Part shown: piece after piece, positions 19,403 to 58,532 of the stretch | Position numbering within the stretch: the first letter of the stretch is position 1 | Layout of the letters: every line of letters starts with the position of its first letter | Origin: an uncultured Alphaproteobacteria bacterium | GTDB taxonomy: Bacteria > Pseudomonadota > Alphaproteobacteria > JAAXGF01 | Direction of reading: 5' to 3' | NCBI GenBank assembly: GCA_964475385.1 | Contig: CAYYWV010000001.1 | Span: 1-61,287 of the forward strand | DNA: 61,287 nt | Translations under genes and position numbers: made by a program | The notes under the pieces: generated by a model | Seen by the model: the letters and a program-made list of their open reading frames with translations, nothing else | Told to the model about the DNA's origin: nothing | Databases searched by the model: none

Positions 19403-20851
19403 TTAAGCGGCCGGGCGGGTGTCGAGCTCGGACTGGGCGCTGTCTGCCGGCCGGGATGAAGGGGTCTGGGCCGAGCTCGGCCAGAAGACGACGCGGACCG
19501 TCTGGAGGAGAATAAGAATGTCGAGCATGATGTTGAAGTTCTTCATGTAATAAAGATCATACTCGAGCTTGCGCCGAGCGTCCTCGACCGAAGCGCCGTA
19601 CGGGTACTTGATCTGGGCCCAGCCGGTGATCCCCGGCTTCACCCGATGCCGTTCCGCGTAATAGGGGATCTCCTTGGCGAGCTGCTCGACGAAGTAGGGG
19701 CGCTCGGGCCGCGGCCCGACGCAGCTCATCTCCCCTTTGAGGACGTTGATGACCTGAGGGATCTCGTCGATCCGCGTCTTGCGAATGAAGGCGCCGACCC
19801 GCGTGATGCGACCGTCGTTCTCCGTCGCCCAGCGCGGCGTGCCATCGCTTTCGGCGTCGAGGGCCATGCTCCGGAACTTGAGAAGCATGAACCGCCGTCC
19901 GCCAAGGCCGACGCGCTCCTGGCGGTAGAAGATCGGCCCTGGGCTGTCGAGGCGAATCGCGATCGCGGTCGCGATCAGAAGCGGCAGGGTGAACAGAAGG
20001 AGCGACGCGCTCACGGTCAGATCGCAAAGGCGCTTGAGCGCGGTCCTGAGCAGGTTGTCGGAGAAACCGTCGGAGAAGATCAGCCAGCTCGGGTTCAACG
20101 ACTCGATATCGACCCGTCCGGTCTCGCGCTCCCAGAAGGTCGAGTACTGAATCACATTGAGGCCGTTGAGCTTGCAAGCGAGCAACGCCTCGGTCGGAAG
20201 CTGACGGCGGCAGTCGTCGACCGCGACGAGAATCTGGTCGACATGACGCTTTCGGGCGAAGGCGGCGAGATTGGGGACCGCCGAAATCACCCGTGTCTGC
20301 GAGACGCAAAGGGGTTCACCGTCGCCGGTCGCCAGGAACCCGACCACGGTAAAGCTTGCGCCATTCTGAGCTTCGAGCGCCTCGATCCGCGCCGCCCGTT
20401 TCCCCGCCCCGATGACCAAGACGCGCTGTTTGAAGCGGTCGAAGCGAATGAACCGTTCGGCGACGAGGCGGGAGGTCGCGATCCCGACCGAGGCGAGCAT
20501 GAGCGCGATTAAAAGCGCGCTCCGCCAGATCGTGATCGTTGGAAACAGGTAGAAGATCAGCGAGAAGACGATCAGCGCTAGCACCGTAGCGGTGGCAAGC
20601 CGAATAAAAACGGCGCGCAGGTTGTGGAGGAACTCGCGCTGATAAAGCCCGAGCGCAAGCAATATCACCCCGAAGACGCTGGTGAAGAGCGCGATCTCGG
20701 GCAGGAACGAAGCCGTTTCCCATGTCATGTTGGCGGCCACGACATATCGGATGAGAAGGGCCGCCGTGATCGCGGCGAGGAGAATCGCAAATTCGCCCGC
20801 GACGAGCAGCAGGATCGAGATCGGGATGTACTGTTTGAAGACCCGTATCAT
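19403..20851 (-). CDS. Polyprenyl-phosphate glycosyl-1-phosphate (priming) sugar transferase, exopolysaccharide / PEP-CTERM-associated type
   Basis: N-terminus MIRVFKQYIPISILLLVAGEF with about 5 TM helices. C-terminal bacterial sugar transferase domain (LLKFRSM, RIDEIPQVINVLKGEMSCVGPRPERP, KPGITGWAQI). The 128 upstream codons of the track ORF are Arg-rich and look non-coding. Confidence 0.85.
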   Translation of the reverse strand: MIRVFKQYIPISILLLVAGEFAILLAAITAALLIRYVVAANMTWETASFLPEIALFTSVFGVILLALGLYQREFLHNLRAVFIRLATATVLALIVFSLIFYLFPTITIWRSALLIALMLASVGIATSRLVAERFIRFDRFKQRVLVIGAGKRAARIEALEAQNGASFTVVGFLATGDGEPLCVSQTRVISAVPNLAAFARKRHVDQILVAVDDCRRQLPTEALLACKLNGLNVIQYSTFWERETGRVDIESLNPSWLIFSDGFSDNLLRTALKRLCDLTVSASLLLFTLPLLIATAIAIRLDSPGPIFYRQERVGLGGRRFMLLKFRSMALDAESDGTPRWATENDGRITRVGAFIRKTRIDEIPQVINVLKGEMSCVGPRPERPYFVEQLAKEIPYYAERHRVKPGITGWAQIKYPYGASVEDARRKLEYDLYYMKNFNIMLDILILLQTVRVVFWPSSAQTPSSRPADSAQSELDTRPAA

Positions 20852-21235
20852 ACCGCGCGCGCCATGTGCGCCCCACTCTCCAGCGTCGTCATCTCCCGCG
20901 TCTTCGGCTCTATTTCTGGCGGGACGACCGAATGCCGAGGCGACAGACGTCGCCGGCTCGACATATCGCGATCTTCTCGACAGTCGAAAACCGGATCGAA
21001 CACGCTGTGCGCCTCCCCCTCTACTGCGCAAGCTCTTCAGGCCGTATGGCCTCTTAAACGCGAAACGATGCCGCCGGCGCTCGATTCCGCGCGCGGCTGA
21101 CAGTGTGGTCTTTCCAACCTGGCGAGGTCCGTATCCGTTCCCGGTATCGGGAGCGTGTGTCCTCCGTCCCTCGTGCCTTCGGGGCCTACGCCCGATCGCT
21201 TCGTCGAGCGCCCTCCGGCTTCTCAACGAAAGCAA

Positions 21236-21251
21236 TGCAAGAATCGCGCCA
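21236..21251 (-). promoter_or_regulatory. Sigma-54 (-24/-12) promoter TGGCGCGATTCTTGCA upstream of the sugar transferase gene
   Basis: The reverse complement of gcaagaatcgcgcca-type + strand sequence reads TGGCGCG-ATTC-TTGCA. It matches TGGCACG-N4-TTGCW at all but one position. Confidence 0.6.
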
Positions 21252-21324
21252 GACGACGGCTTTGGCCTGATTTCAAGAGGTTATGTCTTGGCGCCGACTG
21301 GAATGATGCCGAGGTTCCGCAAAA

Positions 21325-21341
21325 CTGTAAAGTATTCCGAC
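21325..21341 (-). promoter_or_regulatory. Repeated 17-mer GTCGGAATACTTTACAG (candidate enhancer/UAS), 74 nt upstream of the sigma-54 promoter
   Basis: One of three copies of GTCGGAAWANTTTACAR in the window (see 21535 and 23702). Confidence 0.45.
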
Positions 21342-21534
21342 TCATGGGCTGTCGGGATGTCTATTCTTGATGGCAATAAATACAGAGAAAGCATATAGAT
21401 ATGGAACTTATTCGATGTGTTCTCATATTAACCATATCTGAGAGGAGATGGCGTCCTGGCGGCCCAGGAACGGCTGCGGGCGCGAATCGGGGTGCGGGTC
21501 CAATCAGTTAGACCGATTGGGTCGATCCCTGGAA

Positions 21535-21551
21535 TTGTAAAATTTTCCGAC
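21535..21551 (-). promoter_or_regulatory. Repeated 17-mer GTCGGAAAATTTTACAA (candidate distal enhancer/UAS)
   Basis: Third copy of the motif, same orientation as the 21325 copy, about 285 nt upstream of the minus-strand sigma-54 promoter. Confidence 0.4.
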
Positions 21552-21574
21552 ACCTGGGCGATGCGGCGCGTGTT

Positions 21575-22192
21575 TTACGAGGTCGGCTTCGCGATTTGGA
21601 TGTGATTCACCACCCGCTCGACCCCGTCGGTCTTCCGGATTTGGGCGAGCACGCGTTCGAGCTCGCTGCGGTCCCGGGCGGCGCCGATCAGATAGACGAC
21701 CCCGTTGACCGAGCGCACCCGGTAGTTCGCGGACCGAATGCGTTCGTCAAGGAACAGCGCCGACTGGATCGTCTTCTCGATCAGGACATCGTTGACGAAG
21801 CCCATGATCCCGTTGCCGTCGGCCACCTGGATGTCGTTGATGAGCTCGCGCACGCCTTCGATGCCGGCGGCGAGCGTGGCCGCCCGCGCCTTCGCCGCCG
21901 GGGTTTCGACGCTGCCCAGAAGCAGCACGCGCCCCTTGTAGACCACCGTCGAGACGTTCTTGAACAGATCGATGTCGGCTTCGAACAGGGCCTGGTTGAG
22001 CTTGATCTTGATCGCGTTGTCGCTGATCACCTCGTCGGCGGTCCGCTTTTCGCTTGCCGTGTACCCGGCGTCGGCCACGAGCCCGGTCGCGGTCGAGAAC
22101 GGAACGCAGGCGCCCGCCATCGGCGCGAGCGCGAGCGCGACGAGAAGCATCCGGAATTTCTTAACAGAATTTTTCCCCATCTGGCCGACCAT
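21575..22192 (-). CDS. BON-domain (OsmY-like) periplasmic/lipoprotein, two BON repeats
   Basis: Signal/lipobox-like MLLVALALAPMAGAC. Two BON repeats (VVYKGRVLLLGSVETP..., VNGVVYLIGAARD...). The start is ambiguous: TTG 22219, or ATG at 22192, 22180 or 22150. Confidence 0.75.
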   Translation of the reverse strand: MVGQMGKNSVKKFRMLLVALALAPMAGACVPFSTATGLVADAGYTASEKRTADEVISDNAIKIKLNQALFEADIDLFKNVSTVVYKGRVLLLGSVETPAAKARAATLAAGIEGVRELINDIQVADGNGIMGFVNDVLIEKTIQSALFLDERIRSANYRVRSVNGVVYLIGAARDRSELERVLAQIRKTDGVERVVNHIQIAKPTS

Positions 22193-22311
22193 CACGTAAG
22201 GTTGTTTGCGTTTTTTCAAGGCCTGGACCGCAAATGCGGCGATCGCATCGCGGAACCGGGAAGGGATCGTAGCGAAAGAGGCCTGAAAGCAGGGTATCGA
22301 AGAGGTGCGAC

Positions 22312-22884
22312 ATGGCCGAGGTCAGACGTTGGCTCGTTCTCATCCTTCTCGCCGCCGGGCTGGCGCTCGGCCCAGGCTTGCGCGCCGGCGCGGCCGAGGA
22401 TGGCACCTTCGACAAGAACGAGATCTACGACGAGGCCGCTCGGTTCTTCGGCGAAACCACCGAAGGGCTCGCCAAGGTCATCGAGAAGATCTTCGAAGAC
22501 GAAGGACGCCCCAACGCCTTCATCACCGGCGAAGAGGGATCGGGCGCGATCGGGATCGGCCTCCGCTACGGCAAGGGCAAGCTCCATCGCAAGGGCGGTC
22601 CCGCCGTACCGGTCTACTGGCAGGGGCCGTCGATCGGCTTCGACGTCGGCGGCGACGCCTCCAAGGTCTTCGTGCTGGTGTACAACCTCGAACGCACCGC
22701 CGATCTCTTCCAGCGTTTCCCGTCGGTCGACGGGCGGCTCTACTTCATCGCAGGCGTCAGCGCGAACATCCAGCGCGCGGGCGAGATTACGCTGGCGCCG
22801 ATCCGCACCGGCGTCGGCCTGCGCGCGGGCGCGAACGTCGGCTACACCCACTACACCCGCAAGCATTCCTGGGTGCCGTTTTGA
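22312..22884 (+). CDS. DUF1134-family secreted protein (EipA-like envelope-integrity protein)
   Basis: Signal peptide, then ITGEEGSGAIGIGLRYGKGKL, YWQGPSIGFDVGGDASKVFVLVYNL, PIRTGVGLRAGANVGY. Colinear with DUF1134 proteins as I remember them. Confidence 0.75.
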   Translation: MAEVRRWLVLILLAAGLALGPGLRAGAAEDGTFDKNEIYDEAARFFGETTEGLAKVIEKIFEDEGRPNAFITGEEGSGAIGIGLRYGKGKLHRKGGPAVPVYWQGPSIGFDVGGDASKVFVLVYNLERTADLFQRFPSVDGRLYFIAGVSANIQRAGEITLAPIRTGVGLRAGANVGYTHYTRKHSWVPF

Positions 22885-22940
22885 TCGGAATTTGATCGGC
22901 GCGCAAGAGGCCATCGCGCACAAGTTCTCGTTTCAATCAG

Positions 22941-22964
22941 GAGGGCGCGGCGCGCCGCGCCCTC
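22941..22964. terminator. Perfect 24-nt GC palindrome after the DUF1134 gene (terminator-like hairpin)
   Basis: gagggcgcggcg/cgccgcgccctc. No clear U-tract follows. Confidence 0.4.
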
Positions 22965-23152
22965 GGCATCCGGAAGCCTACTCAAGAACAATTAACCTAT
23001 AGTTTACTTCCACACAGATCATTAATTGTATTTTTTATGGCATTTCAACTTAATTTTCAACAATAAATATTGATGTTGTTCTTTCTTCCTGGGCATGGCG
23101 GACAAGGACGCAGCTTGGCCCTCCGACGGCCGGACGCGAGACGGATGAGCGA

Positions 23153-23452
23153 ATGAGAGACGGGGCGGAAACCGGCCTCGGCCCGGGCGCGGGCGCGCGC
23201 GGAACGCTTACGAAGGCCGTGCGCGGGCCGCTGCTCGCCGGCGGTCTTGCGCTTCTCGCGCTGCTCGGGGCCTGCGCGTCCGGGGTGGTCTCGGCCGATT
23301 CGTCTGGGATCGCGATCGAGCACGACGAGACCAGCCCCGACCCGGCGATCGCCGCCGACAAGCACTGCGCGCAGTTCGGCAAGAAGGCGCAGCTCATCGC
23401 GGTCGAGCCGATGACCTTCGTCAGCCAGATCTACTACTTCGGCTGCGTCTGA
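23153..23452 (+). CDS. Small putative lipoprotein
   Basis: Lipobox LALLALLGAC followed by a roughly 55-aa mature part ending in YYFGCV. No family recognised. The start is uncertain. Confidence 0.4.
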   Translation: MRDGAETGLGPGAGARGTLTKAVRGPLLAGGLALLALLGACASGVVSADSSGIAIEHDETSPDPAIAADKHCAQFGKKAQLIAVEPMTFVSQIYYFGCV

Positions 23453-23701
23453 TACCTGCGGCTGCACTGGACGAGAGGGCAAGCCTGCTTCCCCGGCGCC
23501 GCGCCTCGGCTTCGACTTCAAAAGCCGGTCCCCCGGTTGCCTGGGGCCCGGGCGCCGGGAGGCGGGTGTCGAAATCCTTTACAAGGGGTGGTGTCGCGTC
23601 GGACATGCCGCGGCCGCAAATAACCATACAAAAATAAAAGAGAAAAGCGCTGTCCGCTGCTCTCGAGGGGGATTTTCCTCCGGCGACTGGGGCAATGGAC
23701 T

Positions 23702-23718
23702 GTCGGAAAAGTTTACAG
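23702..23718 (+). promoter_or_regulatory. Repeated 17-mer GTCGGAAAAGTTTACAG (candidate enhancer/UAS), 62 nt upstream of the sigma-54 promoter
   Basis: Same motif as 21325 and 21535, oriented towards the PEP-CTERM gene. Confidence 0.45.
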
Positions 23719-23779
23719 GTTCTCTCGTCCTTATGCGACGTTCTTCGATAACCCTTTGAGAAAAAAGAGAGACCAAAAT

Positions 23780-23795
23780 TGGCCCGATTCTTGCA
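23780..23795 (+). promoter_or_regulatory. Sigma-54 (-24/-12) promoter TGGCCCGATTCTTGCA upstream of the PEP-CTERM protein gene
   Basis: Read directly as ttggcccgattcttgca. One mismatch to TGGCACG-N4-TTGCW. It lies 155 nt before the ATG at 23950. Confidence 0.6.
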
Positions 23796-23949: not shown

Positions 23950-25059
23950 ATGCGTGCGACGAGGATTTTTAGAGACCTGCGTGTATTCGTCGGGGTCGTC
24001 TTGGGGGCGTTCATCGCCCTACCTGCGCAGGCAGGGCCCATAGACGCCGCCGCCGATTGGCTTCTTACTCAGCAAACGGCCTCGGGCGGATTCCCTTGGA
24101 CGCCGGGGGGCGCGGTCACCAACAACACGCAAGGCGCTACGGCGCTCGGGCTCATCGGCGCGTATCAGGCGACCGGCAACGCCGCCTATCTCAATGCGGC
24201 CAAGAGCAACGGCGACTACATTTTGTCGCCCGCTTACAGCCATTATTCGGACGGCGATCCGCGTTTCTCGACTCACGATCCGATGTTTCTTGAGGTTCTC
24301 AGCGCGGTGACGGGCGATTCGAGCTACGCCGATTTCACGCAAACCAACTTCTGGGACAAGCTGTCGGCCGGCGTGTACGGGGAAGGAAACGACCTCGATG
24401 CGGCGGGCTTCGCCAACGCCGTGATCACCGGGCGAACGAACCAGGGAATCGTCGAGCTTTCGCCTTGGGATTTGTCCAAGGCCGCGATCGGCGCTCACAT
24501 CGCCGGCGAGACCGCGGCCCGAGACGCCTTCATGAACGGCATTCTGACCGGCCTCGAATCGACGACGGCGAGCGACAACACCTATGATCTTTTCGGTCTT
24601 TCGGGCGCCATCTGGGCCTCGGCCGTGACCGGGATCGACCTCGACCCGACCGCCGGGCGCTGGGCGGCTGCGAACTCGACCGCCGATCTCGCCGCCGAGT
24701 TGATCAACTACATCAACGCCGACGGCGGATGGATTTGGGGCACGGCCGCCGATATTAACGATCTGTCCAACGGGGACGTCCAACAGACCGCGTTTTCGAT
24801 CCTGGCCCTGGCCGCGCTTGATCCGGCGGCTTACGCCTCTCAGATCAGCGGCGGCAGGGCTTTCATCGCGGGGTTGCAGCAGCCGTCCGGACAAATCCTG
24901 ATCTATCCGGGCGCCGCGCCCGGAGCCTCGGGAAGCGTCGAGGTCCAAGGCGAAGCGCTCTACGCCCTGGCGGTTACGGTCCCTGAGCCCGCGACGGTCG
25001 CGCTCTTCGTCGTCGGCCTTGCGGGTCTCGGTTTCCTGCGGCGTCGCGGCGACGCCTGA
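23950..25059 (+). CDS. PEP-CTERM-anchored secreted protein with prenyltransferase/squalene-cyclase-like (alpha/alpha toroid) repeats
   Basis: Signal peptide. Repeats of the type DWLLTQQTASGGFPW, YINADGGWIWG, AGLQQPSGQILIYPG. C-terminal sorting signal VPEPATVALFVVGLAGLGFLRRRGDA. The ATG at 23950 is preceded by GGAGGG. Confidence 0.8.
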   Translation: MRATRIFRDLRVFVGVVLGAFIALPAQAGPIDAAADWLLTQQTASGGFPWTPGGAVTNNTQGATALGLIGAYQATGNAAYLNAAKSNGDYILSPAYSHYSDGDPRFSTHDPMFLEVLSAVTGDSSYADFTQTNFWDKLSAGVYGEGNDLDAAGFANAVITGRTNQGIVELSPWDLSKAAIGAHIAGETAARDAFMNGILTGLESTTASDNTYDLFGLSGAIWASAVTGIDLDPTAGRWAAANSTADLAAELINYINADGGWIWGTAADINDLSNGDVQQTAFSILALAALDPAAYASQISGGRAFIAGLQQPSGQILIYPGAAPGASGSVEVQGEALYALAVTVPEPATVALFVVGLAGLGFLRRRGDA

Positions 25060-25209: not shown

Positions 25210-25285
25210 TGGCTCCCCGGGCCGGACTCGAACCAGCGACCTAGTGGTTAACAGCCACCCGCTCTACCAACTGAGCTACCGGGGA
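25210..25285 (-). tRNA. tRNA-Asn (anticodon GTT)
   Basis: Folded by hand: acceptor TCCCCGG/CCGGGGA, D-arm GCTC/GAGC, anticodon arm GGTGG-CTGTTAA-CCACT, T-arm GCTGG-TTCGAGT-CCGGC, encoded CCA. Confidence 0.9.
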
Positions 25286-58151: not shown

Positions 58152-58532
58152 ATGGCATCTATTTTGGTGATCGACGACGAACCGCAAATGCGCAGCATGC
58201 TCCGCCTGGTTCTGGAGCGGGCGGGCCACCGCGTCTACGACGCGCCGAACGGTCACGCCGGCGCGGTCGTCTTTCGTCAGAACCGGATCGATCTCACGAT
58301 CACCGACATCCTCATGCCCGAGCGGGAAGGCATCGAGACCATCTCGGAGCTGAAACGGATCACGCCCAAGGCCAAGATCATCGCCATCTCCGGAGGCGGG
58401 CGGACCAAGAATCTCGATTTTCTCAAGGTCGCGAGAAAGATCGGCGCCGATCGCACCCTCGCCAAACCCTTCCGCCCCCAGGAGCTCGTCGACACGGTCG
58501 ACGATTTGCTCGGGGCGGGCGGTGAAAACTGA
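58152..58532 (+). CDS. Single-domain (CheY-like) response regulator
   Basis: ILVIDDEP, the phospho-Asp in LTITDILMPE, IAISGGG, LAKPF. AAGGAG lies 9 nt upstream of the ATG. Only the 3' end of track ORF 56880..58532 is real. Confidence 0.85.
   Translation: MASILVIDDEPQMRSMLRLVLERAGHRVYDAPNGHAGAVVFRQNRIDLTITDILMPEREGIETISELKRITPKAKIIAISGGGRTKNLDFLKVARKIGADRTLAKPFRPQELVDTVDDLLGAGGEN

Follow-up and report, generated by a model that had tools for sequence, protein, structure and literature searches.

The alphaproteobacterial contig analysed here (CAYYWV010000001.1; 61,287 nucleotides (nt), hereafter the window) carries a gene for a priming sugar transferase and a gene for a PEP-CTERM cargo protein, each preceded by a sequence that resembles a sigma-54-dependent (-24/-12) promoter. 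The question that this locus raises is whether the two sequences are working promoters and, if so, which enhancer-binding protein acts on them. The original prediction took both to be sigma-54 promoters and linked them to PrsK/PrsR, the two-component pair dedicated to PEP-CTERM systems. In our assessment, both sites are very probably functional promoters that depend on an enhancer and belong to the PrsK/PrsR (PEP-CTERM) regulon, a reading to which we assign a probability of about 0.88. The window is contig C1 of an assembly of 2.71 Mb (238 contigs, 91% complete), and the nearest named relatives of the locus, Alphaproteobacteria metagenome-assembled genomes (MAGs) and Sphingomonadales, are in keeping with a proteobacterial host.

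Two -24/-12 elements with paired upstream boxes

The element upstream of the sugar-transferase gene, TGGCGCGATTCTTGCA, lies on the minus strand at 21251-21236 and is recognized by both pattern match and conservation in orthologues; the element upstream of the PEP-CTERM gene, TGGCCCGATTCTTGCA, lies on the plus strand at 23780-23795 and is recognized by pattern match. These are the only two matches to TGGCNNG-N4-TTGCW in the window, where 0.18 would be expected, and none of 100 shuffled versions of the window yielded two or more. As originally described, the two 16-mers differ at a single base (position 5, G vs C), have the spacer GATTC in common, and depart from the consensus TGGCACG-N4-TTGCW at position 5 alone. 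The two elements are divergently oriented, with three envelope genes between them. The distance from 23795 to the ATG of the PEP-CTERM gene at 23950 is 155 nt (with GGAGG 8 nt before the ATG), and that from 21236 to the ATG of the sugar-transferase gene at 20851 is 385 nt, the transferase start (MIRVFKQYIP...) being kept in the orthologues. Transcription is predicted to start at about 23806 on the plus strand, with a leader of about 144 nt, and at about 21225 on the minus strand, with a leader of about 374 nt.

A 17-nt box, TGTCGG-N5-TTTACA, occurs twice upstream of each of the two elements and always points the same way with respect to the promoter; the window thus holds four copies, where 0.28 would be expected. 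On the transferase side, the proximal box AGTCGGAATACTTTACA, which corresponds to motif 1 of Haft et al. (see below), occupies 21326-21342 (minus strand), 74 nt upstream of the TGG of the promoter, and scores 28.4 bits; the distal box TGTCGGAAAATTTTACA, at 21536-21552 (minus strand), is 284 nt upstream and scores 31.5 bits. On the PEP-CTERM side, the proximal box TGTCGGAAAAGTTTACA is found at 23701-23717 (plus strand; 62 nt upstream, 28.2 bits) and the distal box TGTCGAAATCCTTTACA at 23567-23583 (plus strand; 196 nt upstream, 27.1 bits). Between the proximal box and the promoter, there is in each case a site of the form YAA-N4-TTGA, namely, TAACCTCTTGA at 21273-21283 (minus strand), 32 nt upstream of TGG and kept in the orthologue alignment, and TAACCCTTTGA at 23749-23759 (plus strand), 31 nt upstream. 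The shared form of these sites, TAACC-N2-TTGA about 31 nt before TGG, fits the reverse complement of the core of the integration host factor (IHF) site, YAA-N4-TTGAT, and we infer that IHF would bind there. The predicted boxes at both promoters are those expected of enhancer-dependent promoters.

A predicted regulon of 14 promoters

The same arrangement recurs throughout the genome. A weight matrix for the box, built from 21 boxes and applied at a threshold of 20 bits, finds 26 boxes in the genome (5 of which had not gone into the matrix) and none in five simulated genomes. All 26 lie outside genes, with one overlapping a doubtful, crude open reading frame (ORF) call; the gene calls come from a simple ORF picker based on GC3 (G+C at third codon positions), and counts that depend on them are approximate. 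All 26 are also located 62-304 nt upstream of a -24/-12 element on the same strand, for which the chance per site is 0.0026. The pairs of box and -24/-12 element define 14 promoters, whose consensus is TGGCAyGAwwCTTGCA. That the two window elements are nearly identical mostly reflects this regulon-wide consensus and points to no special relation between the pair. Other strong sigma-54 sites in the genome (e.g., C61:5678, C8:23535 and C37:4261) are not accompanied by a box, and because of this absence the box can be taken to mark one regulon.

The geometry of the 14 promoters is narrowly constrained. The box is doubled at 11 of them, including one with three copies, and its invariant positions across the regulon are xGxCGG-N5-TTTACA. 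The gaps between the proximal box and TGG cluster at 62-65, 71-76 and 83 nt (mean 68.6); the clusters are about 10.5 nt apart, which is consistent with helical phasing (P about 0.003). A YAA-N4-TTGR site is present at half of the promoters (7/14, vs 0.7% of shuffles), and six of the seven sites start between -31 and -33.

The genome scan proposed in the original prediction places a -24/-12 promoter of this regulon before every one of the seven complete PEP-CTERM genes for which the contig includes upstream DNA (hypergeometric P = 6e-17); in total, the genome contains 10 matches to TIGR02595 (PEP-CTERM) over the cut-off. Two more promoters precede genes cut by contig ends, one of which begins a HAF-repeat protein; such proteins usually carry PEP-CTERM. 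The remaining five belong to the window sugar transferase (one promoter), a DUF2336 gene (one), small membrane ORFs (two) and a non-coding RNA on contig C36 (one). Three of the PEP-CTERM genes, with PepA-like C-termini, form a tandem 3.6-kb array (C62:554-4126) in which each gene has its own promoter with two or three boxes.

The regulators required by this reading are encoded elsewhere in the genome, as had been anticipated from a window without rpoN, enhancer-binding protein or exosortase genes. All matches to these families are on other contigs, and the only related match in the window is a weak receiver-domain hit at 58161-58499. RpoN (C17, 426 bits), PrsK, PrsR and the exosortase all score above the curated cut-offs. 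Contig C49 carries, in tandem, a TIGR03013 gene, prsK (TIGR02916, 783 bits), prsR (TIGR02915, 721 bits) and prsT (TIGR02917, 800 bits, likewise over its curated cut-off); xrtA, with an EpsI domain, is on C65 (343 bits) inside a typical exopolysaccharide (EPS) locus; and himA, encoding IHF-alpha, is on C8, again above the curated cut-off.

The link between the box and PrsR is also apparent across genomes. In a set of 41 related genomes, 9 contain the composite pattern (box, 58-88 nt, TGGC-N7-TTGC) and 10 encode PrsR, with 8 genomes having both, 2 PrsR only, 1 the pattern only and 30 neither (Fisher P = 4e-6); a reversed control pattern gave no hits in these genomes. Given this co-occurrence profile and that of an earlier study (see below), PrsR is the most likely binder of the 17-nt box.

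The sugar-transferase gene and its leader

The sugar-transferase gene (19403-20851, minus strand) matches TIGR03013, the family of priming sugar transferases of XrtA/PEP-CTERM systems, with 538 bits against a cut-off of 393, which bears out the identity proposed for it. It is the second TIGR03013 paralogue of this genome; the other, with 54% identity, is located at C49:9274-10674 and adjoins prsK. The window gene appears to be monocistronic because a convergent methyltransferase gene comes next. Two orthologues were identified, one in a genome of the same genus (74% amino acid identity) and one (58%) in a MAG, labelled Alphaproteobacteria bacterium Maj_1_bin.23, that belongs to a different genus of the family. 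At both orthologous loci (L024 in the same genus and L025 in the other), the 16-mer TGGCGCGATTCTTGCA is unchanged, and the two boxes and the TAAC..TTGA site are retained as well. The prsK-linked TIGR03013 paralogues have no such box-plus-sigma-54 promoter, and in the genome under study there are no boxes either near the prsK-linked paralogue or in the xrtA locus.

The leader of the sugar-transferase gene (20852-21235, minus strand) had been singled out for its unusual length. The length is real, but the region looks like a plain spacer, being variable in length, unconserved and unstructured. The leaders in the three genomes measure 385, 360 and 241 nt, their sequences are not alignable between the orthologous loci, and no conserved element was found. 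The predicted fold is no better than those of shuffled sequences (z = -0.99), and searches of the leader returned no Rfam match, no terminator and no sigma-70-like site, the sole sigma-70-like hit of the scanned region overlapping the proximal box, upstream of the promoter. On these grounds, we rejected a riboswitch or another RNA element within this 385-nt leader. Also rejected was an upstream reading frame of 38 codons, the end of which overlaps the transferase ATG; it is not conserved, the region being absent from genome G004. A longer transferase ORF starting from a TTG at 21235 was rejected as well: it would overlap the promoter, and the MIR/MVR methionine at 20851 is where the TIGR03013 model begins and where the orthologues have their start.

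A different arrangement is seen upstream of other TIGR03013 (epsB2) genes. In 53 of 79 loci (L036-L114) from Sphingomonadales and other Alphaproteobacteria, a single PrsR-type box, TGTCGG-N5-yTTACA, is present 14-131 nt before the epsB2 ATG, mostly at 23-29 nt, in the orientation of the gene and with no -24/-12 element after it. Such a box may be an autoregulatory or repressor site through which PrsR controls the epsB2-prsK-prsR operon.

The PEP-CTERM gene and the genes between the promoters

The PEP-CTERM gene (23950-25059, plus strand) encodes a cargo protein of 369 amino acids with a C-terminal PEP-CTERM domain, and its predicted identity is upheld by TIGR02595 (23.3 bits, cut-off 16) and PF07589 (24.8 bits, cut-off 20.7). 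It, too, appears to be monocistronic because a convergent tRNA-Asn gene (25210-25285) comes next. The protein has no Pfam domain beyond the sorting signal and looks like lineage-specific cargo. Between the two promoters lie genes for a BON-domain/OsmY-like lipoprotein (21575-22219, minus strand) and for EipA (envelope integrity protein A, 235 bits; 22312-22884, plus strand), as well as a small lipoprotein-like ORF (23153-23452, plus strand). This envelope-related block carries no boxes of its own.

Proposed mechanism

The RNA polymerase holoenzyme containing sigma-54 (RpoN, C17) would bind the -24 GG and -12 GC elements in a closed complex that does not open by itself. PrsR, an NtrC-type response regulator (C49), would be phosphorylated by the membrane kinase PrsK and would then bind the two TGTCGG-N5-TTTACA boxes at each promoter, the proximal one 62-74 nt and the distal one 196-284 nt upstream of TGG. 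The YAA-N4-TTGA site, about 31 nt before TGG, lies in AT-rich DNA that would be bent, probably by IHF, such that the PrsR oligomer meets the closed complex, and ATP hydrolysis by PrsR would open the promoter. The leftward promoter would then drive the second TIGR03013 priming sugar transferase and the rightward promoter the PEP-CTERM cargo gene. Under this scheme, one signal would turn on both a surface or matrix protein, which is then sorted by XrtA, and a glycan-priming enzyme.

Points against this reading and alternative explanations

Several observations weigh against the assignment of both sites to the PrsK/PrsR regulon. Position 5 carries a non-consensus base in both window promoters and is A in 12 of the 14 promoters of the regulon. 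With scores of 14.3 and 14.9 bits, the two are among the lowest of the set (range 13.7-19.7); the sigma-54 weight matrix is our own approximation of the published consensus, and counts that depend on it are approximate. For the window PEP-CTERM gene, the 12 nearest genomes yielded no orthologue against which the conservation of its promoter could be checked. The distance of 385 nt between the leftward promoter and the transferase ATG exceeds the range of 23-221 nt reported for this class in 2006 (PMC1569441), and the transferase might have a second, closer promoter. Six further NtrC-type sigma-54 activators are encoded in the genome (on C120, C186, C37 and C25, with two on C12), and the open-access literature that we found includes no report of direct binding of PrsR to DNA.

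The further activators and the absence of such a report in the literature found bear on the possibility that the promoters are genuine sigma-54 promoters whose boxes are bound by an enhancer-binding protein other than PrsR. The match between the box pattern and PrsR is also imperfect, with one genome (G018) having a pattern match without PrsR and two genomes having PrsR without a strict pattern match. Nevertheless, the pattern tracks PrsR over the 41 genomes, as the motif pair did in 13 Proteobacteria in 2006 (PMC1569441), and the boxes are missing at the strong sigma-54 sites outside the regulon, so that a different activator appears improbable. Still less probable is that the minus-strand promoter yields a separate short transcript of the 385-nt region while the transferase relies on a nearer promoter of its own, an arrangement that the excessive distance, the upstream frame ending over the ATG and the non-coding RNA driven by the same regulon (C36) might suggest. 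As described above, the region offers neither a terminator nor a sigma-70-like site, an Rfam match or a fold beyond that of shuffles; the leader and the upstream frame are unconserved, whereas three genomes from two genera have preserved the association of promoter, boxes and transferase, and the other TIGR03013 paralogues have no promoter of this kind.

The least credible explanation, to which we give almost no weight, is that the 16-mers are chance look-alikes or remnants of duplication with no promoter function. They do rank among the weakest matches of the set, GC-rich genomes readily yield GG..GC pairs, and 31 of the 56 sigma-54 matches of at least 13 bits in this genome fall within genes. 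A coincidence of this kind would, however, have to supply two matches in a window where a fraction of one is expected, each accompanied by a pair of boxes and by an IHF-like site at the fixed distances of the regulon, and to keep one of them, TGGCGCGATTCTTGCA, invariant across genera while its flanks diverged. Control of both promoters by PrsK/PrsR through sigma-54 is the reading that we retain.

Relation to known systems

The classical NtrC/NifA promoters that use IHF (glnAp2, nifH and Pu) have tandem activator sites some 100 nt or farther from the start and an IHF-induced bend ahead of the -24/-12 element, and they show helix-face dependence. The promoters described here resemble these in the tandem upstream sites, the predicted IHF-type bend and the apparent helix-face dependence. 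They differ in that the box is an asymmetric 17-mer with the outline TGT-N11-ACA in one orientation, whereas the classical sites are TGT-N10-ACA (NifA) or dyads (NtrC); furthermore, the activator here would be PrsR, and the output is cell-surface cargo.

The closest precedent is the in silico definition of the PEP-CTERM systems by Haft et al. (2006, BMC Biol 4:29; PMC1569441), who described a 17-nt motif 1 that ends in TTTACA and is sometimes repeated, followed by a 17-nt sigma-54 motif 2. The spacer between the 3'-most copy of motif 1 and motif 2 was 62.8 +/- 10.6 nt (range 32-92). The motif pair preceded 99 of 167 proteobacterial PEP-CTERM genes and a few other genes, and PrsK, PrsR and PrsT were discovered via its phylogenetic profile (PMC1569441). 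The present system has the same 17-nt box ending in TTTACA and the same -24 GG/-12 GC motif, with spacers of 62 and 74 nt in the window and 62-83 nt genome-wide. As in 2006, the motifs occupy large intergenic regions before single-gene PEP-CTERM operons and are confined to genomes that encode PrsK, PrsR and PrsT, with a small number of additional sites before other genes. The plus-strand promoter also fits the earlier distances to the gene (a PEP-CTERM gene at about 155 nt), whereas the minus-strand promoter, with a TIGR03013 target at about 385 nt vs 23-221 nt, does not. At the sequence level, then, every feature of the 2006 family is present except the target type and the distance of one promoter. 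The differences are that doubling of the box is seen at 11 of 14 promoters rather than just occasionally, that an IHF-like YAA-N4-TTGA site lies between the box and the promoter, and that a DUF2336 gene and a non-coding RNA are among the targets.

Experimental evidence is available for a betaproteobacterium, Aquincola tertiaricarbonis RN12, in which pepA transcription starts from a mapped -24/-12 promoter (TGGCAC ... CTGCTT) and requires RpoN1 (PMC9850573). An enhancer sequence is predicted upstream of pepA, and epsB2 (TIGR03013), prsK, prsR and prsT are all needed for the floc phenotype (PMC9850573). The two systems share a PEP-CTERM gene under a -24/-12 promoter with a predicted enhancer upstream, the difference being that the alphaproteobacterial promoters are predicted from sequence. 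They also differ in the transferase: in Aquincola, epsB2 adjoins prsK and no sigma-54 control of it has been reported, whereas the genome studied here has a second epsB2 paralogue that is preceded by a box-plus-sigma-54 promoter of its own.

The sigma-54/PrsK-PrsR interpretation put forward in the original prediction is therefore supported by the trans factors, the genome scan and the boxes, but the two promoters are not the first cis evidence for such a regulon, the motif having been known since 2006 (PMC1569441). The arrangement as such is solid and not new. What is modestly new is the conserved control of a second TIGR03013 transferase by box and sigma-54 promoter, the doubling of the box almost throughout the regulon, its phased spacing, the IHF-like site and the non-cargo targets, above all a conserved candidate small RNA (sRNA) of about 130 nt.

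Predicted non-cargo targets of the regulon

The non-coding target lies on the minus strand of contig C36 (about 7100-6850; loci L019/L115), where the promoter TGGCACGATTGTTGCG has a box 76 nt before it and no ORF after it. The predicted RNA of about 130 nt (about 6981-6850, minus strand) ends in a Rho-independent terminator, has a minimum free energy of -64.3 kcal/mol (z = -4.4) and has no Rfam match. The RNA and its promoter are kept in two related genomes (L116, G001:C107; L117, G004:C19), with compensatory changes in the stems and the terminator across the orthologues. It contains an invariant stretch, CACUCCCUCCACACUCCUCCAGGGAUCC (CACUCCCUCCACACUCCUCC), with two CCUCC anti-Shine-Dalgarno motifs and is a candidate PrsR/sigma-54-dependent sRNA. 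A comparison of duplex energies against translation start regions gave no clear outlier among potential targets, in a GC-rich genome with crude gene starts.

The promoter at C140:3254-3349 (plus strand) precedes a DUF2336 gene (C140:3500-4732), and a very similar promoter region is present in G001 (C88:5754-5847) and probably in G004 (C8:39156-39261), so that DUF2336 may be a conserved non-cargo member of the regulon. The promoters at C41:9046-9031 (minus strand) and C116:1138-1153 (plus strand) precede predicted membrane ORFs of 54 and 125 amino acids, respectively; the former has no Pfam match and the latter only a weak, sub-threshold Mpo1-like hit.

These targets raise the possibility that the PrsK/PrsR-sigma-54 regulon of this alphaproteobacterial family reaches beyond cargo to a second priming glycosyltransferase, DUF2336 and the RNA of about 130 nt. 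We hold this extension tentatively, at somewhat less than even odds.

Implications

The analysis specifies in full a predicted PEP-CTERM control circuit in an uncultured alphaproteobacterium, with 14 promoters and a fixed geometry of box, IHF-like site and -24/-12 element, and it repeats the phylogenetic-profile result of 2006 in a new clade. The invariant box positions, the phased spacing and the doubled sites are ready substrates for a test of PrsR binding. The non-cargo targets, that is, the second TIGR03013 transferase, DUF2336 and the candidate sRNA, hint at a wider control by the PrsK signal. If the regulon does extend this far, one envelope signal would jointly set cargo synthesis, glycan priming and post-transcriptional repression.

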